A stretch of 32,000 bases of DNA from Candidatus Thalassarchaeaceae archaeon (GTDB lineage Archaea > Thermoplasmatota > Poseidoniia > Poseidoniales > Thalassarchaeaceae), in NCBI GenBank assembly GCA_045568075.1, contig JBJLBP010000001.1:300001-332000 (forward strand), written 5' to 3'. The stretch's first letter is position 1, and each line of letters starts with the position of its first letter. The notes under the pieces are model-generated. The model did no database searches and was not told where the DNA came from. It saw only the letters and a program-made list of their open reading frames with translations. This document shows, in pieces, positions 9,426-31,482 of the stretch. Made by a program: the position numbers and the translations under genes.

Positions 9426-9429
9426 GCCT

Positions 9430-11127: not shown

Positions 11128-11131
11128 GGCA

Positions 11132-11572
11132 ATGGCATCGGCTATGCTCGACAATACTCGATTGGAGATTGCCGAAGGTACCGATTACGCAACCGAAGAG
11201 ATTCCTTGGCCCATTCTGACACTAGCCATCTACGCGCGCGAAGAAGGTATCATCACTCGCGAAGGTCTCGTATCGATGACTCGAACTCTTCTGCTTGAAG
11301 GCCCCTCATTCACTACCACAGAGTTCGAAGATCGTCTCAAATGGTTTGCAGCAAGGGCCGAGCAAGACGGCTTCACTCCAGCCGATTCATCAGCAGTCGA
11401 GGATGCTGTCAACGCCGTCCTTGCCGACCGTGTTGATTTCGTAAAAGAACGCGGTTTAGGCGCAATAGGGCCACTAATGGGTATGGTTATGGGTGAATTG
11501 GGAGGGGCTGCCGATGGTAAGATCGTTAGCCAGACCTTGAAGCAGAAAATCAACGAAATCTTGGAAGGTTGA
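11132..11572 (+). CDS. gatE: GatE C-terminal helical/YqeY-like tail domain, encoded in a different frame from the GatE core (a frameshifted or split gene).
   Basis: ...DRVDFVKERGLGAIGPLMGMVMGELGGAADGKIVSQTLKQKI is the GatB/YqeY tail signature. This frame is open from 11051. ATG 11132 is the first ATG after the upstream stop. Confidence 0.6.
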   Translation: MASAMLDNTRLEIAEGTDYATEEIPWPILTLAIYAREEGIITREGLVSMTRTLLLEGPSFTTTEFEDRLKWFAARAEQDGFTPADSSAVEDAVNAVLADRVDFVKERGLGAIGPLMGMVMGELGGAADGKIVSQTLKQKINEILEG

Positions 11573-13406: not shown

Positions 13407-13447
13407 CTGCCTTACGTGGTTCAGAATCTGTTAATCACTGATTCAGT

Positions 13448-14074
13448 TCAAAGTTGGTCTTCGAGCATTCCGCCCAATAGAGCGCCAACGCCGATTACGA
13501 CACCGTCGAGTACCCAAGTACTCGCAGCCTCGACCATGTTTCCGCTACCCATGACTTCAGCAGCCATTGTGTCAGCACCGGTAACACCTGCGCCGAGTGC
13601 TCCTGCCATAGCAACCACAGCGAATGCGGTCATCCAGCCATCACACCTTGATGCAATAGCACCAATCAATGCACCAGCAGCGACCATCATCAGCATAGGC
13701 CATAGGTCAAATGCCCACATGGTGACGATTTCATCGCCACCAGTGTCTGCTGCTCCATCGACTCCTGCTACAATATCAGTCAGTCCTGCTGCATCTACAG
13801 TGCCTTCGCCTACCATTGCAAGTGCTAAGCCAGCACCAACAACCTGCATTACCAGTCGCATCACGTTTCCGATCCACGCATCTGTGTCCTGTAGGTCACC
13901 AGTCATTGCACTGATCCAGGTGAACATAGGCAGAACGTGTGCTCCTGCCATAGCCGCCATGACGACAGCGAGTAGTACTCCCATCATCACAGCATTGCCT
14001 TCACCGAGAACCAGCCACGACACCGCGAAAGCGCCGCCAAGTTCTGCCATGTTCGTTTTCCAATCCATTTCCAT
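13448..14074 (-). CDS. Gly/Ala-rich polytopic membrane protein. It may be a divergent MIP/aquaporin-like channel without NPA motifs.
   Basis: Strong SD on the minus strand (GGTGAGGAGGA, 14091-14081) lies 6 nt before the ATG (14074). Two internal half-repeats resemble MIP halves: AELGGAFAVSWLVLG...GAHVLPMFTW...QVVGAG, and AFDLWPMLMMVAAG...GADTMAAEVMG. The overlapping plus-strand ORF is a low-complexity shadow. Confidence 0.6.
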   Translation of the reverse strand: MEMDWKTNMAELGGAFAVSWLVLGEGNAVMMGVLLAVVMAAMAGAHVLPMFTWISAMTGDLQDTDAWIGNVMRLVMQVVGAGLALAMVGEGTVDAAGLTDIVAGVDGAADTGGDEIVTMWAFDLWPMLMMVAAGALIGAIASRCDGWMTAFAVVAMAGALGAGVTGADTMAAEVMGSGNMVEAASTWVLDGVVIGVGALLGGMLEDQL

Positions 14075-14080
14075 ATTATT

Positions 14081-14091
14081 TCCTCCTCACC
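14081..14091 (-). promoter_or_regulatory. Shine-Dalgarno site for the 13448-14074 gene.
   Basis: The minus strand reads GGTGAGGAGGAAATAATATG. Confidence 0.6.
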
Positions 14092-14196
14092 TAAGCGAGT
14101 GCTCTCGCGCTATTCGGCGACTATATAATCGGAACTGACTGAAACCGGAAAAAAATACCGTTTTTGCTACATTTTTCAGAAACCCGGTGTGCCTGA

Positions 14197-16172: not shown

Positions 16173-16266
16173 GGCTCACCGTTCAGCCTACGATACATCA
16201 TCATGTTCCTGTCAAGAGATGCTGAATTAAGTCACGGAGGAAGAATTAAACCACTTCTGAATTAGT

Positions 16267-19200
16267 GTGGAAAACGTGTTCTTCCACCTCAGAACCCGTG
16301 ACCTCGTTGCATTCGCTCTGGTCCTTCTCATGTTGGGAATGAGCGCTTCTTTCGGAATCGCCCCAGAGGATGAACGGAAATCTACCTCTTTGGAAGATGA
16401 AACTCCACTTCTTATGACCCACTCAACAATCACCGACATCGGCTTCTCCGCTGACTCGATTTACACAAACACAACAATCGCCGCGGGCACTTACAACGGC
16501 TGTGCAATTCTTGAGAATCAAAGCATGGTTTGCTGGGGTGACAATGAGTATGGTCAACTCGGCGATGGGACTACTGACGGATCGGTGGTGCCGATTTACG
16601 TCAACGTTGCCGCTAACGAAACTCCTGTCGAGGTCACGGTTGGACAAGTCACAGCCTGTGCCTTGATGGAATCAGGGAACATCTACTGCTGGGGCTCAGG
16701 TTACTATGGTAAGATGGGTAACGGTGAGCCCTGGGGTGATGATTATGTGAATACAGAGATGCGTCAAGTATTGCTTCCTGAAGGTCAAGGCGGTCAAACG
16801 GTCTCGATTTCCGGCGGCCACATCTGCACTATCCTCGACAACGGTGACGTCTACTGTTGGGGTCGAGGCAACCAAGGTCAACTCGGATATGGAGGCACAT
16901 CAAATCGCAATATTCCAGCAAAGGTAAATTTGCCCGGACAGCGAAGTGCGATTGCGATTTCGACCGGGACCTACATGACTTGTGCTATCACGACCGATGG
17001 AATGGGCTACTGTTGGGGCGAAAATGACGAGGGACAACTCGGGAATGGCACTACAAATACGAGGCGAACGACACCCGTCGAGGTCCTCTTTCCATCTGGA
17101 TACACCCCTGTTTCTATCTCGGCTGGCGATGACTTCTCCTGTGCTTTGATGGATAATCGCAAGGTGATGTGCTGGGGTGAGAATAACGATGGTCGCTTGG
17201 GCCAAGGTCCTTTGGCAACCGATGATGAAACAACGCCTGTTTGGGTGAGTATGGAGAATAGTGAGACGGCTCATTTCCTTGATATCGGAACAAAATCTGC
17301 TTGCATGATTCTGGATTCAGGGGAAACCAAGTGCTGGGGTACAAATGAGGAGGGCCAAATAGGCCAGGGAGACACCAATATCGACTATTATCCAACTCCA
17401 ACTGAGGTGAGCGGTAACCACGACTTCGTCGCTCTTTCAATCAATTCAGATACTATTTGTGCGATTACATCTGACGCAGAAGGATACTGCTGGGGAGATA
17501 ATGAGGCTGGCCAGACTGGACGTGGATCAATAGATACCGACGAACCGACACCAGGTGAAATTTTGTTTACTTCGAATCACCTGATGCTCGACGATCGTGA
17601 TCCGGATGAAGACGGTATTCTTTCGATCTTCGACCCCTTCCCAAGAGGGTGCATTCCAGGCAGTTGGTTCAATTCCACTCTGGGTGATTGTCAGTGGAAC
17701 TCCCCTGGTCATTACACAGATCAAGCAGAGTTGACTCAGGAAATTCCTTGCCCGATTGGCAGCTATCAGCCGTATACGGGTCAGTCGAGTTGCTTACTCT
17801 CGCCGTCGGGTAATTACACAGACGTTGAAGCATCGATTACACCAACTCCATGCCCAGCCGGCCAATATCAGCCAGCTGAGGGCCAGACCGCGTGCATCGA
17901 GAACGATGCTGGCCACTTCTCACTCGAAGGTTCAGTCGAGCAAGACCCCTGTCCGAAGGGAACCTACCAGCCTTCTACCGGACAGGCGGATTGCCTCAAT
18001 GCCGACCCCGGACATTTCGTCAATGTTACGGGCTCAACGTCCCAGACGCCGTGCTCGCAAGGGACCTATTCATCTACGTCGATGGCAGAATCTTGCACCG
18101 AGGCGAGCCTTGGTTATCATGCACCCAATACGGGTTCGACAGAGCAGACAGAATGTGCTGTCGGAACTTTCGCTGACGAGACCGGCCTTGCGCAATGTAA
18201 GGATACTGCTCCCGGTCATTTTGTTGCCTCCACAGGAGCATCCAGTGAGACTCCATGCCCTCCCTCGCAGTACCAGCCTTTGGGAGGGCAATCCTCCTGT
18301 TTGCTAACTGACCCAGGGCATTATACGACCTCGGATGGCTCAATCGAGCAAACCGAATGCACTTGGGGATATTACCAGAGTGAGTCTGGGTCTATTCGTT
18401 GTCTGACCTCTAAACCAGGTCACTACGTCAATCAATCTGGCGCCGCTGAACAGACTCCTTGTTCTCCTGGTTCATTCCAGAACCAGTATGTGAAACGAGA
18501 ATGCATCGAGGCCTTTGAAGGATATTTTGTCGCAGAAGCGGCCTCGCCCTCTCAGACCCGTTGTCCACTTGGGTATTACACAGATTCGAGAGGCTCGTTA
18601 GAGTGTAATCTCGTCTCTCCAGGGCACTACACCACTACAGAAGGGGCGACAGCTCAAACTCCCTGTTCGAATGGTACTTATCAGCCTGAATCTGGACAGT
18701 CATCCTGTCATTACGCAGACGAAGGGCATCATGTTCCTGAGGAAGGTGCAAGCCAACAAATTCCGTGCCCACCGGGTTCTTTTCAGGCGCTGACTGCTAT
18801 GCAATTCTGTATCGATACCGATCCGGGTTATCACACTCCTGAGCCAGGAATGACCGAGCAGATTATCTGCTCAGCAGGAACCTTCCAACCCGATGCCGGC
18901 CAAGGAATATGCCATCAAGCGGACAAGGGGCATTACGTTCTAATTTCTGGAATGACCGAGCAGACGATTTGCCTCGCGGGTTGGTTCCAACCTGAAGTTG
19001 GTCAGCTTGAGTGTTTGCAGGCACAACCTGGCTACTATTCTCCAGCGGCGGGAACCGCTGATCAGATTGCCTGCGAGCCCGGTACATATCAGGGTCGGAC
19101 GGGAGCTTCCAATTGCAATAATGCCGAGATTGATCACTACGTTGAAGCAGCAGCCTCAACTTCCCAGACGCCATGCCCTGAGGGGTCATCTCAACCATTA

Positions 19201-19323
19201 GAGGCACAATCAGAGTGCATCTTCCCTCCGGGTCTAAGCACACAGACAATTCTCTTGGTTGCAGGAAGTGTTGGAGTGATTTTAATCACCGGCCTCGTTC
19301 TGATTATGCGTAGAAGAAATTGA
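16267..19323 (+). CDS. Surface protein paralog 1 (1018 aa): signal sequence, 7-blade RCC1-like propeller, TSP3-like DxDxDG site, 32-Cys ladder of 34-aa repeats, C-terminal TM and RRRN tail.
   Basis: N-terminal LVLLMLGMSASFG. Seven blades: CWGDNEYGQLGDG, CWGSGYYGKMGNG, CWGRGNQGQLGYG, CWGENDEGQLGNG, CWGENNDGRLGQG, CWGTNEEGQIGQG, CWGDNEAGQTGRG. DDRDPDEDGILSIFDP linker. Repeats of C-P-x-G-x-Y-Q-P-x-x-G-Q-x-x-C / x4-P-G-H-Y-x4-G-x3-Q-T-P-C. TM helix ILLVAGSVGVILITGLVLIM. GTG start. Confidence 0.85.
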   Translation: MENVFFHLRTRDLVAFALVLLMLGMSASFGIAPEDERKSTSLEDETPLLMTHSTITDIGFSADSIYTNTTIAAGTYNGCAILENQSMVCWGDNEYGQLGDGTTDGSVVPIYVNVAANETPVEVTVGQVTACALMESGNIYCWGSGYYGKMGNGEPWGDDYVNTEMRQVLLPEGQGGQTVSISGGHICTILDNGDVYCWGRGNQGQLGYGGTSNRNIPAKVNLPGQRSAIAISTGTYMTCAITTDGMGYCWGENDEGQLGNGTTNTRRTTPVEVLFPSGYTPVSISAGDDFSCALMDNRKVMCWGENNDGRLGQGPLATDDETTPVWVSMENSETAHFLDIGTKSACMILDSGETKCWGTNEEGQIGQGDTNIDYYPTPTEVSGNHDFVALSINSDTICAITSDAEGYCWGDNEAGQTGRGSIDTDEPTPGEILFTSNHLMLDDRDPDEDGILSIFDPFPRGCIPGSWFNSTLGDCQWNSPGHYTDQAELTQEIPCPIGSYQPYTGQSSCLLSPSGNYTDVEASITPTPCPAGQYQPAEGQTACIENDAGHFSLEGSVEQDPCPKGTYQPSTGQADCLNADPGHFVNVTGSTSQTPCSQGTYSSTSMAESCTEASLGYHAPNTGSTEQTECAVGTFADETGLAQCKDTAPGHFVASTGASSETPCPPSQYQPLGGQSSCLLTDPGHYTTSDGSIEQTECTWGYYQSESGSIRCLTSKPGHYVNQSGAAEQTPCSPGSFQNQYVKRECIEAFEGYFVAEAASPSQTRCPLGYYTDSRGSLECNLVSPGHYTTTEGATAQTPCSNGTYQPESGQSSCHYADEGHHVPEEGASQQIPCPPGSFQALTAMQFCIDTDPGYHTPEPGMTEQIICSAGTFQPDAGQGICHQADKGHYVLISGMTEQTICLAGWFQPEVGQLECLQAQPGYYSPAAGTADQIACEPGTYQGRTGASNCNNAEIDHYVEAAASTSQTPCPEGSSQPLEAQSECIFPPGLSTQTILLVAGSVGVILITGLVLIMRRRN
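17650..19218 (+). repeat. In-frame coding repeat array: 32 cysteines and about 15.5 units of about 34 aa (about 102 nt), ephrin-receptor-like/GCC2_GCC3-like.
   Basis: The span from first to last ladder Cys codon is 1569 nt (523 aa). Cys spacing alternates at roughly 13 and 19 residues. Confidence 0.8.
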
Positions 19324-19382
19324 CTCGGTCCGACATTGAATGCGCACTACCGTCGGAATGACTAAAGCAAACCTAGAACCAT

Positions 19383-22300
19383 GTGCCGTCTATGATAGAT
19401 AGCCACCGATTGAAGCCTTTGCTTGCTCTTTCTTTAGTCGTCATGATGCTTGGCATGAGTGCCTCAATTGGAATATCCGAAGACTCTCCTCCAAATGAGG
19501 AATCAGAACTCCCTCAAGTCATTGAGCCGAGATCCACACATGGTGGTCTAAACATTCCCGGTTCGACCGCGGGTTCAGTTTATTCAGCCTCGACGGTTTA
19601 TGCCTCGTGGAATTACAGTTGTGCAGTCCTCAATACCAACGGCATGAAGTGCTGGGGTGAGGGTAGTTATGGGAAACTCGGACACGGCTCCGGAGGCAAC
19701 TCCGTGGAGCCTGTTAACGTCCTGCTCGGAAATAACGCAGGAATCAGCACAGCAACAGAGGTTGGAGCGGGTTTGAGTCATCACACCTGCGCCATGATGA
19801 CCGATTCCACACTGCAGTGCTGGGGCGAAGATTGGAATGGTCAGAATGGTCACGGTAGTGGTGGTGGCTGGCATGGTGGAGATACCTCTCCAGTGGTAGT
19901 GAATATGCCCACCGGGCGGACCGCGCTGACAGTAACCAACGGTGGCCATCACACTTGTTCAATTATGGACAATAGTTCATTGTGGTGTTGGGGACGTGGC
20001 GGAACGGGCCAACTCGGAACTGGAAGTTTGAATGACCATTACGTTCCTGAATTAATTTCATTGCCACCAAATGCCTCACCAATCGCTGTTTCAGCCGGCT
20101 GGGATAGCACTTGCGTCATACTCCAAAATAACACTGGGATGTGCACTGGTTGGAATGGTTATGGCCAACTTGGTGATGGTACCCAAACCAATGCATCCAC
20201 ATTTACTCCTATGTCTGTACTACCTCCAAATAGTAATTTATCAGCAATCTCTATGGGAGTTAGTCACACTTGTGGTTTGTTGAAAAATGGTAGTATCTAT
20301 TGCTGGGGAAATAACGCAAATGGGCAGCTTGGTGACAACACAACTGAATCAAGAAACGACTCATCGGTGCAAGTAATTCTGCCCGCAGGTAGAACTGCCA
20401 TCACTGTGGATGCGGGGATGCACCACTCATGTGCCATCCTCGATGACGATAGTGCCGTGTGCTGGGGTGACAATGAGTATGGTCAAATCGGAGACGATAC
20501 CACCACTGACCGCCTAACTCCTACAGCTATATCGTTCCCAGGGGGTATCGGTGTGGCTACGATTAGCGCAGGTCGCGTTCACAGTTGCGCGGTCGTAATG
20601 AACGGATCGACATACTGCTGGGGAGCTCACCACCTCGGTCAACTCGGCAATGGTTTGGGCGTCGATAGCGACATTCCAATGTATGTCAATCTCAGTACTG
20701 GAGGGCAATATTATCACGCATCTCTTGGCGAGAGAGATCTCGACGATGATGGAATCCTGTCGATTTTCGACGACACACCTTACCCTCCTCCTATCTGTCC
20801 AATGGGGCAATACGTGGTCGGCTACGAATGCATCGAAGCATCTCCTGGTAATTACACTCCTACATCTGGTATGTCTGAACAGTTCCCCTGCCCAGCAGGA
20901 ACCTACCAACCTGAATATGGACAGGCCTCATGTTATGATGCACCACTAGGATACTATGTCCCATCTAATAGTTCAATCAGTGCGATGACGTGTCTAGCAG
21001 GGACCTTCCAGAATCAAACCGGTCAGACTTCGTGTATCGATTCTCCTCCTGGAAACTACACCAATACTGATGCTGCTTCTGAGCCGACCATGTGCGGCGT
21101 CGGACTATACCAACCACTGAGCGGCCAAACCTCATGCCTCGCGAGCGATGCAGGAAATTTTGTAGAAAGTGAAGGCCAAACGGAGCAGACTGCTTGTGAA
21201 GTGGGCACCTACCAACCGGGAATCGGGCGCACAAATTGTTTCTCGGCCGAAAAGGGCCACTATGTGAGTCAGGAGGCTGCAACCGACCAGACAGCGTGTG
21301 AGGCTGGAAGTTATGCTGATGAAAGCGGCTTAACCGCCTGTAAAATGGCAGATCCCGGGCATTATGTCGGGTCTATGGCAGCTGTTACACAGACCGCCTG
21401 TGCACCGGGTGAATACCAACCTCAATCATCCCAGACCTCTTGCCTCACGACTGAGGCAGGTCATCAAAACCCCGACATCGGTTCTACAGATATGATTCCG
21501 TGTGAGGCCGGATATTACCAACATGAGACTGGCCGAACGTATTGCCTCGCTGCAGACCCCGGGTCTTACATCCCAGCCCCTGCAGCTTCGGCTCAAATCG
21601 AATGTCCTGCAGGAACCTACTCTCAAGAATCAGCCAGCACTAGTTGTATTGATGCAGACGCTGGTTTTCACATTCCAGAGTCAGGCTCAACGGACCAAAT
21701 CGAATGCGTTGCAGGAACTTATTCTTCCGATGCAGGGTCCACAGTCTGTGCCAGTGCAGACCCCGGATATTACGTGTTGAGTAAACAAGCAACCGGCCAA
21801 ATTGCGTGCGACGCAGGATCTTATCAGCCAGAATCTGAGGCTACTGGTTGCTTGCAGGCCATCCCTGGACACTATGTTGAGTCCAGCGCAAGCGACTCTC
21901 AGGTTTCTTGCCTCGCTGGAACCTATCAGGCAGAGGCTGGGAAAACTAGTTGCATTACCGCACCTCCAGGAACTTACGCTGCTGAAGAATCCTCAACCAC
22001 AGTCGAAAACTGTGGCCCCGGAACCTACCAACCGGATTCGGGCCAATCCTCCTGTCTCGAAGCCGAGGTAGGTCACATCGTAGATTCTCACGGCGCAACC
22101 GAACAGATTGCATGCGAAGCTGGAACCTACCAACCCCTAACTGCACAGACTGAGTGTGAAACCGCCAGTCCTGGAAGTTACGCTGCATCTCCCGGCTCAG
22201 CAGAAGCAACTCCATGCTCGCCTGGAACCTATCAGCCAATGTTCGGAGCTGATTCCTGTCGCCTCGCTAGTAAGGACCATTTCGTCGAACTTGAGGGTGC

Positions 22301-22607
22301 AATCAGTCAGACACCTTGCCCTTCGGGCGAGTCTCAAATGAACGAGGGCCAGCCATCTTGCATCGTTGATGTGGATAACTCACTACCTATCGAAATGATT
22401 GCGATTGGAGGCGTGGTCGTCCTAGCCCTAGCAGGATTCATGCTCACTCGTGGTAAGAGTGAGCCTGAGCCAGTACCTCAGCGCCGTCGAAGACCACCTA
22501 AGGGTGCCCGTCGCAAGAGGAAGCGACCTGAGAGCGCACGTAAGGAAGAAGAGGACCAGAATAAGTGGGGAAGGCCTTCTGAGGACTCAGGAGGTGAAGA
22601 GGAATGA
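19383..22607 (+). CDS. Surface protein paralog 2 (1074 aa): same architecture, with a long Arg/Lys-rich then acidic cytoplasmic tail.
   Basis: N-terminal LSLVVMMLGMSASIG. Blades: CWGEGSYGKLGHG, CWGEDWNGQNGHG, CWGRGGTGQLGTG, CTGWNGYGQLGDG, CWGNNANGQLGDN, CWGDNEYGQIGDD, CWGAHHLGQLGNG. ERDLDDDGILSIFDD linker. A 32-Cys ladder. TM helix MIAIGGVVVLALAGFML. Tail RRRRPPKGARRKRKRPE...GGEEE. The start is GTG 19383 or ATG 19392. Confidence 0.85.
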   Translation: MPSMIDSHRLKPLLALSLVVMMLGMSASIGISEDSPPNEESELPQVIEPRSTHGGLNIPGSTAGSVYSASTVYASWNYSCAVLNTNGMKCWGEGSYGKLGHGSGGNSVEPVNVLLGNNAGISTATEVGAGLSHHTCAMMTDSTLQCWGEDWNGQNGHGSGGGWHGGDTSPVVVNMPTGRTALTVTNGGHHTCSIMDNSSLWCWGRGGTGQLGTGSLNDHYVPELISLPPNASPIAVSAGWDSTCVILQNNTGMCTGWNGYGQLGDGTQTNASTFTPMSVLPPNSNLSAISMGVSHTCGLLKNGSIYCWGNNANGQLGDNTTESRNDSSVQVILPAGRTAITVDAGMHHSCAILDDDSAVCWGDNEYGQIGDDTTTDRLTPTAISFPGGIGVATISAGRVHSCAVVMNGSTYCWGAHHLGQLGNGLGVDSDIPMYVNLSTGGQYYHASLGERDLDDDGILSIFDDTPYPPPICPMGQYVVGYECIEASPGNYTPTSGMSEQFPCPAGTYQPEYGQASCYDAPLGYYVPSNSSISAMTCLAGTFQNQTGQTSCIDSPPGNYTNTDAASEPTMCGVGLYQPLSGQTSCLASDAGNFVESEGQTEQTACEVGTYQPGIGRTNCFSAEKGHYVSQEAATDQTACEAGSYADESGLTACKMADPGHYVGSMAAVTQTACAPGEYQPQSSQTSCLTTEAGHQNPDIGSTDMIPCEAGYYQHETGRTYCLAADPGSYIPAPAASAQIECPAGTYSQESASTSCIDADAGFHIPESGSTDQIECVAGTYSSDAGSTVCASADPGYYVLSKQATGQIACDAGSYQPESEATGCLQAIPGHYVESSASDSQVSCLAGTYQAEAGKTSCITAPPGTYAAEESSTTVENCGPGTYQPDSGQSSCLEAEVGHIVDSHGATEQIACEAGTYQPLTAQTECETASPGSYAASPGSAEATPCSPGTYQPMFGADSCRLASKDHFVELEGAISQTPCPSGESQMNEGQPSCIVDVDNSLPIEMIAIGGVVVLALAGFMLTRGKSEPEPVPQRRRRPPKGARRKRKRPESARKEEEDQNKWGRPSEDSGGEEE
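20796..22361 (+). repeat. In-frame coding repeat array of paralog 2 (32 cysteines, about 34-aa units).
   Basis: The span from first to last ladder Cys codon is 1566 nt (522 aa), with the same alternating Cys spacing. Confidence 0.8.
22590..22597 (+). promoter_or_regulatory. Shine-Dalgarno site GGAGGTGA for paralog 3.
   Basis: GGAGGTGAAGAGGAATGA: SD, 6-nt spacer, and ATG 22604 overlapping the TGA (22605-22607) of paralog 2. Confidence 0.65.
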
Positions 22608-25600
22608 ATCGCTTGAATGAATCATATCGACGGACGATACTTTCCCTCTCCCTCGCGTTGCTAATGCTCGGGATGTCTGCGGCTTTCGCCCTCGATGCTG
22701 GAGAGTCAGAATCTCTGCCAGAGGAGCAGTCGCCTCGCGATAATCACTCACCACTCCACGAGCCAGGCGCACCTCTAGGGTCGGTCTACACCAACCTAAC
22801 CATCACCCAAGGATACAATCATGCCTGCATGATTCAAGCGAATCATAGCCTGATTTGTTGGGGCTCTGGAGGCTCTGGTAGATTGGGCCATGGTTCTTCC
22901 ACTAGTTCAGTAACTCCTGTCTATGCTAATCTTCCAGCCAATGAAACTCCTGTAGAAATCGGTGCTGGATGGTGGCACACATGTGGACTGATGGAATCTG
23001 GTAAGATTTACTGTTGGGGAAATGGTGGATTTGGCCAAATGGGCAATGGCCAAACCCAAGATAACAACTACGAGATGATACAGGTTTCACTCCCATTTGG
23101 AAGAACTGGGAAAACAATTGCAGTCGGTGAACACCACGCCTGCACTATCGCCGACAATGACGAGGTCTATTGTTGGGGCAATAACGAGCAAGGAGCAGTA
23201 GGAGCCTCAGGATACCAAGACGCGGAAGCAACTCCTGTTCATGTTGATCTGCCTGGCACTCTTTACGCGATATCTATTGGTGCGGGCAATGAACATACTT
23301 GTGTTGCGGTGAATAATGGAAGAGCATATTGTTGGGGAGAGAATTGGAATGGGCAACTCGGATATGGTGGCTCGGAATGGGCTTCATACCAACCACGAAT
23401 GGTCCAGATACCCGGAAATCGCGACGTTGTTTCGATTGCCGCCGGAGGTTGGCATTCCTGTGCTATCCTTGACAATGGCAAAGTCATGTGTTGGGGCCTA
23501 GACAACTGGGGGCAACTAGGAGATGGTGGTTCGAGTGAGGACCAGTTTACTCCTGTGTATGTCAGCATGGGGTCCAATACGGCTCGCGCAATTGTGACAG
23601 GTTGGGACACCAGTTGCATGATTCTCGATTATGGCCAAACCCAGTGTTGGGGTAAAAACAACAAAGGAGAGGCCGGTACTGGAGACACTGGCGTAAATGA
23701 GTACACAACTCCCGCTACTGTAGCAGGTTCCCACGACTTTGTCTCGATTTCGATGATCGATGAGGGAGCTTGTGCTATCAACTCCGATGCTGAGGTGTAT
23801 TGCTGGGGTGACAACTGGTATGGTCAAGCAGGAAACGGTCAAACAAGCACTCAAGAGTATAGTCCAGTCGAACTCGATTACAGCAATAATCACGCCAAAA
23901 TGAATGATCGTGACCCCGATGATGATGGGATTTTGACGATATTCGACCCAAGCCCCTACGGATGTATCGCGGGAACTTGGATTAACATTTCAACAGGAGA
24001 TTGTGCTGCCACCGACCAAGGCTACTACACAGATCAACCCCAGATGTACTACCAGATTCCTTGTGCGAATGGCACCTATCAGCCAGCTAGTGGGCAAGCG
24101 AGTTGTCTATTGGCACCCGCTGGATATTATGTCGATTATGAGGCCGCGGTGGAGGCAACACCCTGCCCTGCTGGCGAGTATCAGCCTACTGAAGGTCAGA
24201 CAAGTTGCCTTGAGACCATAGTCGGACACTACACCACTGGTGGGGACGCCAACCCGATCCCATGCGCTCCTGGATCTTATCAACCGGCCTCTGGACAGAG
24301 CGAATGCATACTCGCCGATCCAGGTTACCATGTTGATTCGAGTGGTTCATCAACCCAATCTATGTGTGCACCGGGCGGATACTCTGCTGGTAACGGCACC
24401 GCAGATTGCACTCTCGCGGAACTCGGTAGATTCGTCGCCGGTACTGGAGCCACAGGTTCTGATACCTGCGGCGTAGGAACTTACGCAGACGTTGAGGGAC
24501 TCGTCGCATGCAAAGATGCCGACGCAGGACACTACGTCGATACCGAAGGTGCATCTGAGCCTACTCCATGCCCTACGGGTCAATACCAGACAACAACGGG
24601 TCAAACCGAATGCATGGATACTGAAGTCGGCCATTACACCTCTGATGAAGGCAGCGCGAATCAACGCGAATGTGATCGAGGAAGCTTCCAAAGTTCAACG
24701 GGTGCATCTAGTTGTGATGCAGCCGAAGTGGGCCATTTCGTCGATGAAATGGCCGCTTCAGAGCAGACTCCCTGTACTGCGGGTTCCTACCAAAATGAAC
24801 CTAGTAGCACCTACTGCAAGTATGCATCAGAAGGCCATCACGTTCCCGATGCAGGCTCGTCTAGTCAAACTCGATGTCCAGTTGGTACATTCTCAGACAC
24901 CACTGGCCTTGTCGAATGTCACCAGGCCTCGCCTGGATACACAGTGATAGTCGAGGCATCCACCTCGCAGGATGCTTGCGAGATCGGTACTTACCAGTCT
25001 GACTTCGGTCAGACACATTGTGATGATGCGGAGATGGGACACTATGTTCCATCCGAAGGTGCTGGCGCCCAGACTCCTTGTTCCATGGGCACCTACCAAA
25101 GCCGAACTGGGCAGTCATCTTGTATCGATGCCGAACCTGGTTACTTCGCAGGTCAGGAAGGCATGACCAATCCTGACTTCTGCACGGCGGGAACATACCA
25201 ACCAAACTCAGGACAGAGTGCCTGTGATGATGCGGAGATGGGACACTACGTGGAATTGAGTGGAAAGACCGAACAGACCCCTTGCAAGCAAGGGAATTAC
25301 CAACCAAGTCCAGGTCAGACCTCTTGCCTAGAGGCAGATGCTGGCCACATCGTTCCAGAGAGTGGCGCGTCGGCTCAGACACCGTGCGAGCCAGGCACCT
25401 ATCAGGATCGAACCGGCGAGATTACCTGTCGCCTCGCAGCCAAGAATAACTATGTCGATGAAGCCGGTTCCGACTCTCAAAAGAAGTGCGCAACCGGCTA
25501 TTCTCAACCCGAGCGTGGTCAGAGTGAATGCCTGAAGGATGCTGCTGAATCATCCCTGCCGATTATACCGATTGCAGGCGCGGTAGTCGTAGCTGCAGCT

Positions 25601-25726
25601 GTTGGTTTCTTCATGATGAATCGAGGCAAGTCGGGTGGCCCACCGAAGGGTGGTGCATCAGGTGGTAATATGCGCCGCGGGCCTCCACAAAAGGGAGCCA
25701 AGCGACGTAAGAAGCGACCTGAGTGA
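22604..25726 (+). CDS. Surface protein paralog 3 (1040 aa): same architecture, with a Gly/Pro/Lys/Arg-rich cytoplasmic tail.
   Basis: N-terminal LSLALLMLGMSAAFA. Blades: CWGSGGSGRLGHG, CWGNGGFGQMGNG, CWGNNEQGAVGAS, CWGENWNGQLGYG, CWGLDNWGQLGDG, CWGKNNKGEAGTG, CWGDNWYGQAGNG. NDRDPDDDGILTIFDP linker. A 32-Cys ladder. TM helix IPIAGAVVVAAAVGFFMM. Tail PPQKGAKRRKKRPE. Confidence 0.85.
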   Translation: MNRLNESYRRTILSLSLALLMLGMSAAFALDAGESESLPEEQSPRDNHSPLHEPGAPLGSVYTNLTITQGYNHACMIQANHSLICWGSGGSGRLGHGSSTSSVTPVYANLPANETPVEIGAGWWHTCGLMESGKIYCWGNGGFGQMGNGQTQDNNYEMIQVSLPFGRTGKTIAVGEHHACTIADNDEVYCWGNNEQGAVGASGYQDAEATPVHVDLPGTLYAISIGAGNEHTCVAVNNGRAYCWGENWNGQLGYGGSEWASYQPRMVQIPGNRDVVSIAAGGWHSCAILDNGKVMCWGLDNWGQLGDGGSSEDQFTPVYVSMGSNTARAIVTGWDTSCMILDYGQTQCWGKNNKGEAGTGDTGVNEYTTPATVAGSHDFVSISMIDEGACAINSDAEVYCWGDNWYGQAGNGQTSTQEYSPVELDYSNNHAKMNDRDPDDDGILTIFDPSPYGCIAGTWINISTGDCAATDQGYYTDQPQMYYQIPCANGTYQPASGQASCLLAPAGYYVDYEAAVEATPCPAGEYQPTEGQTSCLETIVGHYTTGGDANPIPCAPGSYQPASGQSECILADPGYHVDSSGSSTQSMCAPGGYSAGNGTADCTLAELGRFVAGTGATGSDTCGVGTYADVEGLVACKDADAGHYVDTEGASEPTPCPTGQYQTTTGQTECMDTEVGHYTSDEGSANQRECDRGSFQSSTGASSCDAAEVGHFVDEMAASEQTPCTAGSYQNEPSSTYCKYASEGHHVPDAGSSSQTRCPVGTFSDTTGLVECHQASPGYTVIVEASTSQDACEIGTYQSDFGQTHCDDAEMGHYVPSEGAGAQTPCSMGTYQSRTGQSSCIDAEPGYFAGQEGMTNPDFCTAGTYQPNSGQSACDDAEMGHYVELSGKTEQTPCKQGNYQPSPGQTSCLEADAGHIVPESGASAQTPCEPGTYQDRTGEITCRLAAKNNYVDEAGSDSQKKCATGYSQPERGQSECLKDAAESSLPIIPIAGAVVVAAAVGFFMMNRGKSGGPPKGGASGGNMRRGPPQKGAKRRKKRPE
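23963..25531 (+). repeat. In-frame coding repeat array of paralog 3 (32 cysteines, about 34-aa units).
   Basis: The span from first to last ladder Cys codon is 1569 nt (523 aa). Confidence 0.8.
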
Positions 25727-25731
25727 CTCGA

Positions 25732-25736
25732 TTTTT
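25732..25736 (+). terminator. Oligo-T (T5) tract, a candidate archaeal intrinsic terminator ending the three-gene unit.
   Basis: TTTTT lies 6 nt after the TGA of paralog 3. There is no comparable T-run after paralog 1 or inside the paralog 2/3 overlap. Confidence 0.35.
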
Positions 25737-27867: not shown

Positions 27868-30800
27868 ATGCTCGGTGGTGTCATGGTTCAGGAAGTCGGC
27901 TTGTCGGTAACCAACGAGGAGGTCCCTCCCGGCCCTCTGCCGACGTGGTTACTCGACCACATGCGTCGCCAGAGTTGCGACCCTCAACCACACTCCATGG
28001 GTGGACCGTCTCGGGTTCTAGTGTTGTATGCGGGAGAGGAGGCGAGACGAGAGAATCTCGAGCGGCTCGCTGACGAGGGTGTGGTGATTGACAGGACTCT
28101 GCACCACACCCTCGACTCTCTTGAGAAATCTTTGCTGGCTGATTTGCGAATGCCGCGAGTGTTGTCACTTTCGGGCGGCTGGAGATTGGTCTTGGATGCC
28201 GCTTGCGCTGAGGCGGCTGCGCGGCTTGAGTTTCCAATCCTACACCCCATTCCGAGTCTCGACTGGAATCGCAACAAGACTCGTTCTCTGGCTTCACTAC
28301 ATTCGGTCTTGGCACGTGAAGGATGCCTCGATGAGTGGGACGGCGCTGGAATAGAGGGATTTTCACGTGTGTTGAAGGGGCTTGAGGAAGCACTCGGAGG
28401 GACTCATCCAGATTTTGTCACCAGCCGAGTTATTGAGTCGCTGAAGGCGTCACTGGAAGCCGACTCGACACCGTTCAGCCTATCGGAAGTAGATGGAATC
28501 ATCATGCTTGACCACGCGCCGATGATACCAGCATGTCGTCTGGAATTACTCGAAGCAATATCTCTTCACAAACCAATTCACCAATTGGTTAACCCAGGAA
28601 ATTTCAGGCTGGGAGAACACGGGTTGCTGATTCATGACGATTATGCTCTGAAGAATCTGGATGGCGTGCCGTGGGTTCCGACTCACGAAATCGCTGACCT
28701 CTCGGATTTGGGGCGCTCTCCACACAGGCGCTTCCGATTGCAGCGAGAGTCGCATTCAATTGCTCAGGCGACTCTCATAATCGCAGAGCAATTACGCTCT
28801 GATCCGGATAGCAGTATTCTGATTGTTGACCCGACTGCGGCAGATGATCCACACCAGTGGAGCCGTGCTCTAGCTGACCTCGGGGCTGCGCTGCCAGGAT
28901 CTGAGGCGATGGCGTCGAGTAAGCCTCTTGGACACTGGATGGCGAGCCTTGCTGGGATTTGCCATGGACCGAATGCATGGTCTTTGGAGGGTCTGCGAGC
29001 GCTGGCTCTGCAGCGCTCGTTAGCATTATTCGATGAAATCGATGGACATCCTGCGATTGATGATTTAGTTGCTGAGGCAACTGCAGATTTGCTGACAGAT
29101 TTGGCACGTAGTGACCACTTACTTGGTGGACCCGGGGCTCTCGAACGCTGGCTTGCAACTCTTGCGCGGGATGAGACCGATCCACGCAAAGGCCCAGTCA
29201 AGGAGGCGACGCAGTGGTGGCTACTTTCACTTGCGAATTCTAATCGTGCGCTAATGGCTGATTATGATAAGCAAGTACTTTCCAATCAAGAGTTTTGGCA
29301 AGGCTGTCACAGTGGTCAACATCTACCGGTTGCCAGCGCTCCAGAAACTGGTGATGAATGGCTCATTGCAGCGCTATCGAGAATAAATCTCAGTGCAGGA
29401 ATCGAAGCCGGCGACGGCTCGGTATCGCTCCCAGCCGCCGTTGTTCAGAACCTCGTCGACGCTCATTCGAGACTGAGAAAGATGCAGGAGACGACAGGTC
29501 AATCTAATCCCTCAGGGGGCACCGAATGGGTTGAGGAATTAGAGACGATTCTATCTTCAACGCCGGTGCGCAGTGGAGGTGGGGTCAGCCGAGAAAACAT
29601 CCGCTTGACCACACCAGAGGGCGCTCTAGGCTGCACTGCAGACCTCATCATCCTCGCTAATGTCTCCAGTTCATCTTGGGATTTGCGAGTTTCAAAGGTT
29701 CCATTTTTTGGTGATGAGGAAAGGCACAAACTCGGTATCCTTAGACCCGACACTCCGATTCGTCAGGCCAGGCACCACCTCGCACACCTACTCAGCGCGG
29801 CGAGTAATGAGATTGTCATTCTCGATCCGAGTGAAGATAAATCGACTCCAGTAGCAGCACCAATTCGAGAATGGGCGCGTGTCAATAGCCCAGATTCAGA
29901 AGCTCCCCAACTGGAGGAATCGCCTAATCGTGAGAACGACGCGCGCAACCAGCGCTGGACAGATGGCCGAGAACTCAATTTGATGCGAGCAGCTTCGCGT
30001 CCAGCGCTGAACCCAGCGTCGATTTCAATCCCACTTGATGTCGAAATTCAATCGGACAGAGAGCGAAGACAACCCCGGAACACCGACGACGAAGGTTACC
30101 TTCCCGAAGCAGCTCAACCTCACATTTGGGCCATCGAAAAGGACCAACTTTTGCGGACACATAGAGGTGCTGGACTACGACCGCGACTAGCCACTAGATG
30201 GCCGGTCGTCGGTGGTCCAAACCGTGAGACCATCGATCCTCGCCCCCTCCGTCCTAAAGCAACAGGATCACAACCTTACAATTCTCGTCACGGCTATCTT
30301 GAAGGAGCGGAGCAGTCAGTCGAAATTTGGTCTGCAAGTCGCCTCAAAGAGTGGGTCACCTGCCCGAGAAGGGGGTGGCTAAGCAGGGGATTGTCGGCCG
30401 AGGAGGAAGAACGTCAGAGAGAGGACTTAGACTCACGAGCACAAGGAAATTTACTCCATGAAGTTCACCACCGGATCCTTGAACGCATCCTCGGAATTGA
30501 ACAAGGAATCGAGCGCACAATTGACCAAATCCAGAAGGGGGAATTTCCTCAAAATATCACATCAAGCGGACTCTCGGACGCCGAATTACAATCGATTGCT
30601 CTCGACGAATTATCCAACCTTGCACCTTGGTTGGAACGCACCGATGCGGTATCGAGCGCGAGGCTGAGATTGCTAACTGGATTCTCGCGCGCAGAGTGGT
30701 TAGATTGGCTGAAGGATGGTTCTCCGATTAGTCCAACAGGACGAATCGGACGAATGGTTACTGCCGAATGTTCTCTAGAAGGAACGATTCCAATCGCGAC

Positions 30801-31482
30801 GGAATGGGAGGCGCTGTCATTCAATTCGGCCGGGGTCGAGATTTCTATTCCTGCTAAGATCACAAGCCCTGGGAAGCAGAAATTGCCACCACTACGGCTT
30901 CGTGGACAGATAGACAGAGTCGACTTGCTTCCATTCGACGCTGAAATGAAAGTCCTTGTCGACGAATCCGGCTCGAATAGCATCGCCCCATTGAGGCTCG
31001 CAGGCAGTGATTGGAAACCACGCCGTCTGATCATTATACGCGATATCAAAACAAGTGAGGGCGACCCTCTCAAACGCCACAAAGTAGGTTTGCTGGAGGA
31101 ATTACAACTCGCACTCTACGCCCGAGCTTGGGAGGTAGCCCATCCCGGAGACCTCGTTGTGGCCACAGGAATCAGCGTGATTGGCCACAACACCGACCAT
31201 TTACTCGAGGTTTCGAACCATCTGGCTACTAATTCAAAATCGAGGAACTTCGGCAATACGAAGAAGCAGCAGACACCCTCTCGATATCGCTTCCCAGACG
31301 AGGACGCAGAGAGCAAAAGCGATCCATTCCGGGCTTGGTTGGCTCAGAGACTATCCTCAGCCCTCGCGGCCGCAGCGAGAGCGGCCGAAGGTCGAGTTCA
31401 CCCAACACCGAGCAAGGATGCGTGCAAGTTCTGCCCGGTAACCTCGGTGTGCAATGTGAGACACAAGGGGGATGACCGATGA
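27868..31482 (+). CDS. addB: AddB-like helicase-nuclease subunit: no visible Walker A, and a C-terminal PD-(D/E)XK nuclease with four Fe-S cluster cysteines.
   Basis: The C-terminal domain carries SASRLKEWVTCPRRGWL (Cys 1), GNLLHEVHHRIL, LRGQIDRVDLL (D), IIIRDIKTSEG (D-x-K), QLALYARAW (QxxxY) and CKFCPVTSVC (Cys 2-4). This is the AddB/Cas4-type iron-sulfur nuclease layout. At 1204 aa it is similar in size to bacterial AddB. It precedes a UvrD-like gene with an ATGA overlap. Confidence 0.7.
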   Translation: MLGGVMVQEVGLSVTNEEVPPGPLPTWLLDHMRRQSCDPQPHSMGGPSRVLVLYAGEEARRENLERLADEGVVIDRTLHHTLDSLEKSLLADLRMPRVLSLSGGWRLVLDAACAEAAARLEFPILHPIPSLDWNRNKTRSLASLHSVLAREGCLDEWDGAGIEGFSRVLKGLEEALGGTHPDFVTSRVIESLKASLEADSTPFSLSEVDGIIMLDHAPMIPACRLELLEAISLHKPIHQLVNPGNFRLGEHGLLIHDDYALKNLDGVPWVPTHEIADLSDLGRSPHRRFRLQRESHSIAQATLIIAEQLRSDPDSSILIVDPTAADDPHQWSRALADLGAALPGSEAMASSKPLGHWMASLAGICHGPNAWSLEGLRALALQRSLALFDEIDGHPAIDDLVAEATADLLTDLARSDHLLGGPGALERWLATLARDETDPRKGPVKEATQWWLLSLANSNRALMADYDKQVLSNQEFWQGCHSGQHLPVASAPETGDEWLIAALSRINLSAGIEAGDGSVSLPAAVVQNLVDAHSRLRKMQETTGQSNPSGGTEWVEELETILSSTPVRSGGGVSRENIRLTTPEGALGCTADLIILANVSSSSWDLRVSKVPFFGDEERHKLGILRPDTPIRQARHHLAHLLSAASNEIVILDPSEDKSTPVAAPIREWARVNSPDSEAPQLEESPNRENDARNQRWTDGRELNLMRAASRPALNPASISIPLDVEIQSDRERRQPRNTDDEGYLPEAAQPHIWAIEKDQLLRTHRGAGLRPRLATRWPVVGGPNRETIDPRPLRPKATGSQPYNSRHGYLEGAEQSVEIWSASRLKEWVTCPRRGWLSRGLSAEEEERQREDLDSRAQGNLLHEVHHRILERILGIEQGIERTIDQIQKGEFPQNITSSGLSDAELQSIALDELSNLAPWLERTDAVSSARLRLLTGFSRAEWLDWLKDGSPISPTGRIGRMVTAECSLEGTIPIATEWEALSFNSAGVEISIPAKITSPGKQKLPPLRLRGQIDRVDLLPFDAEMKVLVDESGSNSIAPLRLAGSDWKPRRLIIIRDIKTSEGDPLKRHKVGLLEELQLALYARAWEVAHPGDLVVATGISVIGHNTDHLLEVSNHLATNSKSRNFGNTKKQQTPSRYRFPDEDAESKSDPFRAWLAQRLSSALAAAARAAEGRVHPTPSKDACKFCPVTSVCNVRHKGDDR

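Follow-up and report, generated by a model that had tools for sequence, protein, structure and literature searches.

A tandem triplet of predicted head–stalk–anchor surface proteins in Thalassarchaeaceae archaea, and a head swap at its conserved locus

Within a 32,000-nt stretch of the genome of a Candidatus Thalassarchaeaceae archaeon (hereafter the window; GCA_045568075.1, contig JBJLBP010000001.1, positions 300,001–332,000 of the forward strand), three consecutive, co-oriented genes encode proteins, here termed paralogs 1, 2, and 3, that share a single order of parts: a signal peptide, a seven-bladed RCC1-type propeller, an acidic linker, a ladder of 16 cysteine-bearing repeats, a transmembrane (TM) helix, and a basic tail. 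We consider it reasonably probable that these are modular head–stalk–anchor surface display proteins, whose three diverged heads most likely bind different extracellular ligands. The strongest clue to the mechanism is a head swap in a related genome, in which a nuclease domain sits on the same stalk and anchor at the same locus, suggesting that the ladder displays and the head works. This turns an "unknown receptor or adhesin" into a testable model of modular display.

Marine Group II (MGII) archaea, among them the Thalassarchaeaceae (MGIIb, Poseidoniales), are among the most abundant microbes of the surface ocean and are uncultured. The MGII literature covered here offered nothing on the cell surface beyond archaella, "thrombospondin", and flotillin genes, and we found no publication linking RCC1 or the 34-amino-acid (aa) ladder repeat to this group. 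A first annotation of the window, made from its letters alone (the sequence-only reading), had described the triplet as a module of unknown function, and indeed no description of the family was found in the literature on RCC1, Ephrin_rec_like, PF07699, surface layers (S-layers), adhesion in MGII, CRINKLY4, or mastigonemes. The family is thus uncharacterised and made of known modules; what is new is its conserved locus, its ruler-like stalk, the age and asymmetry of the triplication, and the head swap.

Domain architecture of the triplet proteins

Domains were called as Pfam profile matches against the curated gathering cut-offs, and cysteines and motifs were counted directly on the translations. 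The three open reading frames (ORFs) lie on the + strand exactly where the sequence-only reading had placed them (Table 1), and their shared architecture goes far beyond chance. The head was matched in paralogs 1, 2, and 3 by WD40_RLD (PF25390; E-values 4e-72, 8e-59, and 4e-94; 243.9, 200.3, and 316.5 bits against a cut-off of 150) and by RCC1 (PF00415; 150–165 bits against 21.7), and the ladder by Ephrin_rec_like (PF07699, formerly GCC2_GCC3) over 5–6 stretches per protein (E-values 3.5e-44, 2.5e-37, and 1.9e-39; 148.8, 126.9, and 133.6 bits against 23.1). With RCC1_2 (PF13540) also above its cut-off, every RCC1 and Ephrin_rec_like profile named in the sequence-only reading was recovered. No NCBIfam model matched the full triplet proteins, and Pfam showed no enzymatic domain in them, as had been anticipated.

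Each paralog contains exactly 46 cysteines, all of them between the two terminal hydrophobic segments. Fourteen form seven C-x9-C(W/T)G pairs, one pair per blade, which are invariant across the family; the seven blades and the propeller fold proposed earlier therefore stand, whereas a CWG in every blade does not, since the fourth blade of paralog 2 has CTG. Among the remaining 32 cysteines, spacings of 20 and 14 follow each other without exception and so define 16 repeats of 34 aa across ~523 aa (consensus xxAxpGhYVxxxGstxQTpCxxGtYQpxxGQtsC), in agreement with the regular ladder of ~520 aa first noticed. Because the first and last ladder cysteines fall in 13/14-spaced pairs, the cysteine total is even, and every cysteine is invariant, the C-x13-C pairs probably represent the ladder disulfides, one per repeat.

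Hydropathy analysis identified only two hydrophobic segments per protein, one N-terminal and one C-terminal. The first ends in a conserved (L/M)MLGMSA(S/A) core, and both hydropathy and conservation bear out its assignment as a signal peptide; it was modelled as a helix (residues 5–26) in paralog 3 and is presumably cleaved. The second was likewise recognised as a TM helix followed by a basic tail on the basis of hydropathy and family conservation. With hydrophobic segments at both ends, a cysteine-rich ectodomain between them, and basic tails, the proteins have the features of type-I surface proteins, and hydropathy, cysteine content, and family conservation all argue for a single-pass topology with the propeller outside. 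N-x-S/T sequons, initially described as frequent, are so in paralog 2 only (15 against 7.8 expected, P = 0.006, mostly on the propeller). Paralogs 1 (9 against 7.3, P = 0.29) and 3 (7 against 6.9) are at chance level, so that their sequons were rejected as evidence of heavy N-glycosylation.

The cytoplasmic tails are basic and range from 4 to about 50 aa. The tails of paralogs 2 and 3 share RGKS...PPKGAKRRKKRPE, of the pattern RGKS...PPKGA(K/R)RRKKRPE, and paralog 2 has an 80-aa region after its last cysteine with a strongly conserved tail. Paralog 1 ends in RRRN only; its ortholog in the related locus L001 has a long acidic tail that ends in WGRPEE and resembles that of paralog 2, these two sharing a WGRP(S/E)E motif. 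The C-termini of paralogs 1 and 3 did not match the PGF-CTERM model TIGR04126, so that archaeosortase anchoring of paralog 1 through its PPGL...RRRN end was rejected. A distant family member, P0067, ends in LLPGFGPYMAMIALLTAAIGIRSKQDN, a near-threshold PGF-CTERM (23.6 against 24.5 bits) that replaces the TM helix and tail, which suggests that the family uses alternative anchors.

Predicted structures of the head, linker, and stalk

Monomer structure prediction, proposed as a check in the sequence-only reading, returned a confident propeller and a confident ladder. An AlphaFold2 model of paralog 3, built from a 27-sequence family alignment, had a mean predicted local distance difference test score (pLDDT) of 81, with ~90 for the propeller and 80–90 for the ladder; the region near the signal peptide, the acidic linker, and the tail were disordered. 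The propeller has 28 strands in seven blades, and Foldseek aligned it to UVR8 (TM-score 0.88–0.92, E 2e-32, 26% identity) and to RCC1 and HERC2 (TM-score 0.77–0.87), with RPGR matched as well. A model of the paralog 3 ladder alone reached a pLDDT of 91.8 and consisted of 32 two-stranded hairpins with a 17-aa period. Its best Foldseek match was the Chlamydomonas mastigoneme protein Mst1 (E 5e-26, TMq 0.53), followed by Elapor1 (1e-4) and by weak matches to TNFR-type cysteine-rich domains (CRDs; 0.04–0.1, 4-1BB and CD40), and no solved structure other than Mst1 (8tx1) resembles the ladder in sequence (phmmer, E 3.5e-13). Judging by the per-hairpin rise in such stacks, we estimate that the rod would be ~30 nm long.

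The acidic motif D-x-D-x-D-G-I-L-x-I-F-D occurs once per protein, between propeller and ladder (RDxDxDGILxIFD). Its conservation, which had been proposed from the three paralogs, extends beyond them: the aspartates (D437, D439, and D441 in paralog 3) are invariant across 27 members, the glycine is invariant in the nine-sequence A2 alignment, and comparison with the nearest relative, L037, gives a ratio of nonsynonymous to synonymous substitution rates (dN/dS) of about 0, with no or almost no nonsynonymous change. The pLDDT of the linker is below 50. From the general DxDxDG motif, we consider it a putative Ca2+-binding hinge between head and stalk.

A conserved locus and an exchanged head

Beyond the window, the architecture recurs in about 40 Poseidoniales species and the triplet in a single clade. 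A scan of GTDB species representatives with a nine-sequence family alignment as the query yielded 228 relatives, with the full architecture found essentially only in Poseidoniales, mostly Thalassarchaeaceae. These homologs come from metagenome-assembled genomes (MAGs) classified as Candidatus Thalassarchaeaceae, Poseidoniales, "Euryarchaeota", or "Thermoplasmatota", and their annotation goes no further than "hypothetical protein" or "alpha-tubulin suppressor-like RCC1 family protein". In the ~40 species, a single copy occupies a conserved slot between an aminotransferase gene on the − strand and a series formed by a beta-eliminating lyase, a 310-aa ORF, a PD-(D/E)XK protein, and UvrD, and it nearly always has 30–31 ladder spacings, that is, 16 repeats. 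Outside the window, the triplet was found in just three species-level relatives (L001/L029, L035, and L037); the nearest genome is JAQXEV01, a Thalassarchaeaceae MAG with 90–98% protein identity. Independent assemblies (L001, L002, L035, and L037) show all three genes intact, uninterrupted, and identically ordered, which excludes an assembly artefact or interrupted ORFs.

At this same slot, another Thalassarchaeaceae genome encodes P0178 (763 aa; L086/L087 6001–8292), which consists of a signal peptide, an endonuclease I domain, 13 ladder repeats, an RPLWLT...TM segment, and a ...RSYMYSEDMRR tail. From its first aligned repeat to its last residue, P0178 is 45–50% identical to propeller-headed single-copy orthologs, about the similarity seen among those orthologs themselves. 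This level of identity at a shared position indicates that stalk, TM helix, and tail are orthologous and make up a chassis whose head was exchanged, and we predict P0178 to be a membrane-anchored, stalk-displayed extracellular nuclease of Thalassarchaeaceae. A search with the ladder alone further recovered the 20/14 ladder behind endonuclease I (PF04231), Exo_endo_phos, PKD, and Ig-like heads, bacterial proteins included. The endonuclease I–ladder fusion was also seen in P0177, P0182, P0186, and P0233.

The head swap bears directly on two other explanations. In the first, the triplet proteins would be transmembrane signalling receptors, kinase-less analogues of CRINKLY4, in which the TM helix would pass a binding event at the propeller on to a tail motif that recruits a cytoplasmic partner. 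Their parts do follow the order of the CRINKLY4 ectodomain (a C-x9/10-CWG blade disulfide, a cysteine-rich region in the place of the TNFR-like one, and a TM helix), their tail motifs are clade-specific (SYMYSEDxR, PPKGAKRRKKRPE, and WGRPxE), and the tail of paralog 2 has a dN/dS of 0.05. However, the tail of the single-copy clade, K..(K/R)(S/A)Y(M/L)Y(S/A)ED(M/L/I)R, is shared with the nuclease-headed protein, which makes anchoring, sorting, or positioning a more likely role for the tail than ligand-triggered signalling. Pfam found no kinase or other signalling domain, conserved signalling genes were not found nearby, paralog 1 has just RRRN for a tail, and a rigid rod of ~30 nm would presumably be a poor conformational transmitter; we regard signalling as highly unlikely.

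The second explanation is a cell-envelope canopy that would substitute for an S-layer, with packed propellers outermost, stalks setting the width of a pseudo-periplasm, and paralogs as co-assembling subunits. A core single-copy gene at a conserved locus in ~40 species, with stalk length nearly invariant at 16 repeats, would suit such a structure, as would the C-terminal TM anchor found in many archaeal S-layer glycoproteins, the near-threshold PGF-CTERM of P0067, and an evolutionary rate above that of neighbouring genes, as in surface layers; an S-layer protein for MGII is, moreover, unreported in the MGII literature covered. A nuclease head on a shorter, 13-repeat stalk in the same slot is nonetheless hard to fit with a lattice-forming head. 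Single genomes also hold several RCC1-headed types (canonical proteins, pairs of 1500 + 1730 aa, and giants of 1650–4600 aa), which looks like a repertoire, and sequons are unenriched in two of the three paralogs. Taken together, this makes the canopy quite unlikely.

The wider family of RCC1-headed proteins is diverse. A second Poseidoniales subfamily comprises conserved tandem pairs of ~1500 and ~1730 aa (L044, L045, L049, L050, and L053; e.g., L044 7989–12518 and 12511–17757) with an RCC1 propeller, a shorter ladder, and 9–12 true TSP_3 repeats (Pfam E 1.5e-19, 9 stretches), and its longer member has He_PIG and an EF-hand-like site besides. These are probably the "thrombospondin genes" counted in earlier MGII papers. 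Giant relatives were found in L046 (5937–13430; 2498 aa, 57 ladder spacings, and a SAP domain) and in L064, L069, L071, L075, and L077, those of 3400–4600 aa carrying 2–5 tandem propellers, and individual MAGs (e.g., PSPW01, PSPG01, and JASMKR01) have several RCC1-headed surface genes at different loci. Most ladderless prokaryotic RCC1 hits (bacterial and archaeal P0019–P0102, including Saccharibacteria, Actinomycetota, and Poseidoniaceae) contain the C-x(8-11)-C-[WFY]-G blade pair 13–28 times per protein and look secreted, with two or three disulfide-stapled propellers. Among viruses, RCC1 propellers are found in tail-fibre proteins, for example those of the Pseudomonas phages PollyC and Littlefix (BFVD).

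Age and asymmetry of the triplication

The paralogs are 38–47% identical to each other and 60–66% identical to their positional orthologs in L001, i.e., less alike than orthologs are, so that the expansion predates the clade and has proceeded without gene conversion. Paralog 1 and its L037 ortholog share 93% identity. Paralog 2 is the ancestral-like copy, with a propeller 47–49% identical to those of single-copy genes, where paralogs 1 and 3 reach 32–36%. The propellers of paralogs 1 and 3, whose genes flank paralog 2, are nearest each other (48%), and paralog 3 has its head closest to paralog 1 and its tail closest to paralog 2.

Ladder repeats are 37% identical to one another within a protein and, between paralogs, 38–49% identical at the same position against 35% at different positions, the scaffold residues alone being kept in common. 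This scaffold-only conservation would be expected of a spacer, for which the number of units matters and the surface does not. Gene conversion or concerted evolution of repeats or paralogs was rejected, given that repeats at the same position are no less identical than repeats at different positions and that the paralogs share only 38–47% identity. Among the repeats, only the sixth is conserved individually in all three proteins (C.VGT(F/Y)AD(E/V)(T/S/E)GL..CK); it might bend the stalk or provide a site for a metal or a partner.

These same data can be set against an obligate hetero-oligomer, in which the three paralogs would stand side by side as one stalked complex with a three-propeller head. 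Such a complex could explain why the clade has retained the order a-b-c and 1:1 orthology, why all three proteins have the same number of repeats, why genes 2 and 3 are translationally coupled, and why all three are under purifying selection. Yet a single copy suffices in most species, so the family has no inherent need for paralogs to oligomerise; the ladder surfaces, conserved in scaffold residues only, keep no obvious inter-chain interface; and TNFR/EGFR-type hairpin stacks are usually single chains. We hold an obligate complex to be decidedly unlikely.

Selection on the triplet and head chemistry

Compared with L037, dN/dS is 0.24, 0.26, and 0.22 for paralogs 1, 2, and 3, and 0.03–0.13 for six neighbouring genes. 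By region, it is 0.35 for the propeller in all three proteins and 0.17–0.22 for the ladder. Because these ratios are below 1 but above those of the neighbours, the three genes are functional and under purifying selection, yet among the fastest-evolving of the region, with the head evolving fastest. In L011, the neighbouring genes are 67–89% identical to those of the window and the single surface gene is 45% identical to paralog 2. The heads also differ in the chemistry of their GxxH loops: paralog 2 and the single-copy genes have His-rich loops, paralog 3 has Trp/His-rich ones, and paralog 1 has lost them. A clear hypervariable binding face was sought but not found, the excess of variation in canonical-face loops being only weak.

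Fast-evolving heads might alternatively belong to a variable coat engaged in an arms race with Poseidoniales viruses or grazers, comparable to the cysteine-rich type-I coats formed by the variant surface proteins (VSPs) of Giardia. Besides a rate that exceeds that of the neighbours and peaks in the head, orthologs with as little as 45% identity between otherwise close genomes, head swapping at a fixed locus, a sequon-enriched paralog 2 propeller that could act as a glycan shield, and the presence of RCC1 propellers in phage tail fibres can all be read in this way. A variable coat is still decidedly improbable: dN/dS reaches 0.35 at most, a hypervariable patch was not found, the system is without switching machinery, silent cassettes, or gene conversion between paralogs, and the paralogs are stable 1:1 orthologs across the clade.

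Gene organisation and expression signals

The gap and overlap reported by the sequence-only reading are present, with one likely adjustment. Since the GTG called as the start of paralog 2 at 19383 is CTG in L037 and orthologs begin MIDS, the true start is probably the ATG at 19392, which changes the gap between genes 1 and 2 from 59 nt as called to 68 nt. Genes 2 and 3 share an ATGA stop/start overlap behind the Shine-Dalgarno-like element GGAGGTGA, and this 4-nt overlap is annotated in L001 and L002 too. Upstream of paralog 1, the A/T-rich box GAATTAAAC (with CTATATAT at the equivalent place in L001) is a possible, if weak, archaeal TATA element that would give a leaderless or short-leader transcript, and the T5 tract behind paralog 3 is a candidate archaeal oligo-T terminator. 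Inspection of the sequence found no T-run in the gap between genes 1 and 2 or in the overlap of genes 2 and 3. The A/T box, the T-run-free junctions, the Shine-Dalgarno-like element with its overlap, and the T5 tract behind gene 3 point to expression of the triplet as one operon, and the co-transcription suspected at first sight is thus probable.

Table 1 Positions of the triplet genes, their protein regions, and associated signals in the window.
Feature	Positions	Strand	Evidence and remarks
Paralog 1, 1018 aa	16267–19323	+	ORF; Pfam, 46 Cys
Paralog 2, 1074 aa	19383–22607	+	ORF; Pfam, 46 Cys
Paralog 3, 1040 aa	22604–25726	+	ORF, overlaps paralog 2 by ATGA; Pfam, AlphaFold model
A/T-rich box GAATTAAAC, ~20 nt 5' of paralog 1 start	16243–16251	+	Sequence
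Shine-Dalgarno-like GGAGGTGA (22590–22597), then ATGA stop/start overlap of paralogs 2/3	22590–22607	+	Sequence
T5 tract directly 3' of paralog 3 stop	25732–25736	+	Sequence; conserved in L037
Signal peptide, paralog 1	16267–16353	+	Basic n-region, hydrophobic core, LMLGMSAS; hydropathy; conserved across 27 family members
Signal peptide, paralog 2	19383–19469	+	Equivalent to paralog 1 region
Signal peptide, paralog 3	22604–22687	+	Equivalent to paralog 1 region
Propeller, paralog 1	16447–17586	+	C-x9-CWG pair in each of 7 blades; Pfam, Cys counts
Propeller, paralog 2	19569–20723	+	Blade 4 CTG; GxxH loops His-rich as in single-copy genes
Propeller, paralog 3	22772–23899	+	GxxH loops Trp/His-rich; Pfam; pLDDT ~90; Foldseek UVR8
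Acidic linker, paralog 1	17593–17634	+	
Acidic linker, paralog 2	20730–20771	+	
Acidic DxDxDG linker RDPDDDGILTIFDP, paralog 3	23906–23947	+	
Ladder/stalk, paralog 1	17650–19218	+	32 Cys, 16 x 34 aa
Ladder/stalk, paralog 2	20796–22361	+	32 Cys, 16 x 34 aa
Ladder/stalk, paralog 3	23963–25531	+	32 Cys, 16 x 34 aa; 32 stacked beta-hairpins in model
Ladder repeat 6, paralog 1	about 18106–18150	+	
Ladder repeat 6, paralog 2	about 21253–21297	+	
Ladder repeat 6, paralog 3	about 24419–24463	+	
TM/tail region, paralog 1	19219–19320	+	Hydropathy
TM/tail region, paralog 2	22362–22604	+	Hydropathy
Juxtamembrane SLPIIPIAG, TM helix, and basic tail RGKS...PPQKGAKRRKKRPE, paralog 3	25532–25723	+	
Tail, paralog 2	22458–22604	+	Clade-specific motifs
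Tail, paralog 3	25628–25723	+	Clade-specific motifs

A model of modular surface display

In the model that we propose, a Sec-type signal peptide would export the chain, and the single C-terminal TM helix and basic tail would hold the protein in the membrane. The 46 extracellular cysteines would form 23 disulfides, one in each blade and one in each 34-aa repeat, with the 16-repeat ladder forming a stack of ~32 beta-hairpins, i.e., a thin, rigid rod of roughly 30 nm. This rod would keep the propeller off the membrane, with an invariant DxDxDG hinge, probably Ca2+-binding, between the two. Together, stalk, TM helix, and tail would serve as a reusable chassis and the head as the functional module, and the old tandem triplication would have produced three heads of different canonical-face chemistry, on stalks equal in length, from one operon. 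Candidate ligands would be high-molecular-weight organic matter, particles, or other cells. Binding is proposed as the job of the head because it is the usual role of related extracellular or viral propellers, here BLIP-II, RCC1-containing phage tail-fibre proteins, and CRINKLY4 with its putative ligand groove.

Several points weigh against parts of this model. The propeller head could be structural or catalytic rather than binding, and, with variation only weakly concentrated in the loops of the canonical propeller face and dN/dS well below 1 everywhere, nothing clearly marks a binding site under fast evolution. The disulfide geometry and the length of the rod are estimated, not read from model coordinates. 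For the linker, the sequence-only reading had suggested TSP_3 (PF02412), which Pfam matched neither in the full proteins nor, at E ≤ 1, on the isolated 49-aa linker; the TSP3 label was accordingly dropped, and the generic DxDxDG Ca2+-loop motif kept. Finally, a longer, A/T-rich spacer separates genes 1 and 2 in L001 and L035, so gene 2 may have its own promoter there.

A bolder form of modular display would make this locus the main outer surface structure of Thalassarchaeaceae, which in many waters outnumber all other planktonic archaea: a forest of ~30 nm stalks of ruler-fixed length, with exchangeable heads (propeller or nuclease) that number three in this clade, that would combine the role of an S-layer substitute with substrate capture. 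We find this extension unlikely; if true, it would give both the CRINKLY4-type ectodomain and the Ephrin_rec_like repeat deep prokaryotic roots. In either form, a core, syntenic, fast-evolving surface gene with a natural head swap provides a testable handle on how the heterotrophic MGII make contact with high-molecular-weight organic matter and harvest it. The 34-aa, one-disulfide repeat is also a simple and regular rigid spacer that might serve protein engineering.

Other genes in the window

The triplet is surrounded in the window by archaeal housekeeping genes, which encode MCM, GatE, PTH2, a cysteine-dioxygenase-like protein, an aminotransferase, a beta-eliminating lyase, and an AddAB-like nuclease/helicase. 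The gene for GatE, the archaeal Glu-tRNAGln amidotransferase subunit E (9283–11572), is split into two overlapping ORFs (9283–11127 and 11051–11572). A tblastn comparison with the intact 676-aa GatE of L003 places a shift from frame +1 to +2 near nt 11100–11117, a frameshift that either arose as an error in sequencing or assembly or truly disrupts the gene. GatE probably starts near 9469, and not at 9283, where it overlaps MCM.

Further upstream, a 1241-aa ORF (723–4448) contains two BPD_transp_2 regions, as a fused branched-chain amino-acid permease of the LivH/LivM type that is long extended at its N-terminus, and is followed by two ABC ATPase genes (4432–5241 and 5238–5954). A 240-aa ORF (13416–14138) is unmatched in Pfam and evolves very fast, being 38–63% identical to its counterparts in L001, L035, and L011, with flanking genes at 77–94%; a long antisense ORF (13448–14074) overlaps it, which makes its coding status uncertain. 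On the other side of the triplet, a 1204-aa PD-(D/E)XK protein (27868–31482) is followed, in the relatives L001 and L003, by a 1640–1710-aa UvrD-helicase/PD-(D/E)XK protein, the two forming an AddAB-like helicase-nuclease pair conserved beside the surface-protein slot.

Comparison with known systems

The closest eukaryotic counterpart in overall design, which the sequence-only reading had missed, is the ectodomain of the plant receptor kinase CRINKLY4 (ACR4/CR4, PDB 7a0j). Both have a signal peptide, a seven-bladed RCC1-related propeller with one disulfide per blade (C(x~10)CWG in CRINKLY4, C-x9-CWG here), and a TM helix, and the cysteine-rich region here lies at the position equivalent to the TNFR-like region of CRINKLY4, with weak matches to TNFR CRDs (E 0.04–0.1). 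CRINKLY4 differs in its Ser/Thr kinase, which Pfam did not find here, where the tails measure 4 to about 50 aa; in blades of ~39 aa, as opposed to 52–54 aa, the canonical RCC1 size; and in a 90-aa beta-sandwich with six disulfides in place of a ~520-aa, 16-repeat rod with one disulfide per repeat. The propeller is also much closer in sequence to UVR8 and RCC1 (E 2e-41) than to ACR4 (E 6e-12). Without a kinase, the triplet proteins are not members of the CRINKLY4 family and are architectural analogues of its ectodomain only.

The propeller itself belongs with the seven-bladed folds of RCC1, UVR8, the RCC1-like domains (RLDs) of HERC2, and BLIP-II, with Pfam matches above cut-offs and a TM-score of 0.92 to UVR8, from which it differs in being extracellular and disulfide-stapled. 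Outside an archaeal cell, Ran guanine nucleotide exchange activity would be implausible, and UV-B sensing by a Trp cage or a role as E3-ligase adaptor could hardly apply. In lifestyle, the nearest RCC1-like protein is BLIP-II, a secreted bacterial binder, to which the sequence match is weak (E 2e-9). Phage tail fibres (PollyC and Littlefix) share the propeller fold only; they are viral, with neither cysteine ladder nor membrane anchor.

For the stalk, archaeal parallels exist in SlaB, tetrabrachion, and the Haloferax S-layer glycoprotein, large stalked surface proteins with a C-terminal membrane anchor and a long, distance-setting stalk. In the triplet proteins, however, the stalk is a disulfide hairpin stack and no coiled coil, and in the family the head can be swapped for a nuclease. 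Ephrin_rec_like and TNFR repeats (the Eph receptor CRD, Elapor1, 4-1BB, and CD40) likewise form beta-hairpin stacks, and PF07699 matches above its cut-off, but the strict 34-aa period, the single C-x13-C disulfide, and 16 uninterrupted copies are particular to the ladder described here. Mst1 (PDB 8tx1, 8wa2, and 9b4h) offers the nearest likeness, an extracellular tandem rigidified by a regular disulfide ladder; its authors describe this region as resembling the ephrin-receptor CRD, with disulfides ~11 Å apart conferring robustness. In contrast to the triplet proteins, Mst1 is eukaryotic, has more disulfides per repeat and neither propeller nor TM anchor, and polymerises into a filament via Ig-like domains and a polyproline-II helix.

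The distribution of these modules departs from published views. The sequence-only reading took both as mostly known from eukaryotes, which is true of the literature and not of the databases: disulfide-stapled RCC1 propellers are common in proteins of bacteria, archaea, and phages, and the 20/14 ladder follows many other heads in prokaryotes. The CR4 authors considered the blade disulfides unique to CRINKLY4 and the family unique to plants, and proposed a putative ligand groove in the propeller; contrary to the first of these views, the blade disulfide is widespread in prokaryotes. A review of Eph evolution holds that Ephrin_rec_like "emerged in ancient eukaryotes" and ascribes a bacterial case to horizontal gene transfer, an origin that does not fit a core syntenic gene of ~40 archaeal species together with bacterial proteins. 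For MGII, Rinke et al. named only "thrombospondin genes" as adhesion candidates. Ephrin_rec_like repeats and CRINKLY4-type propellers with blade disulfides can thus be counted among the widespread extracellular building blocks of prokaryotes.

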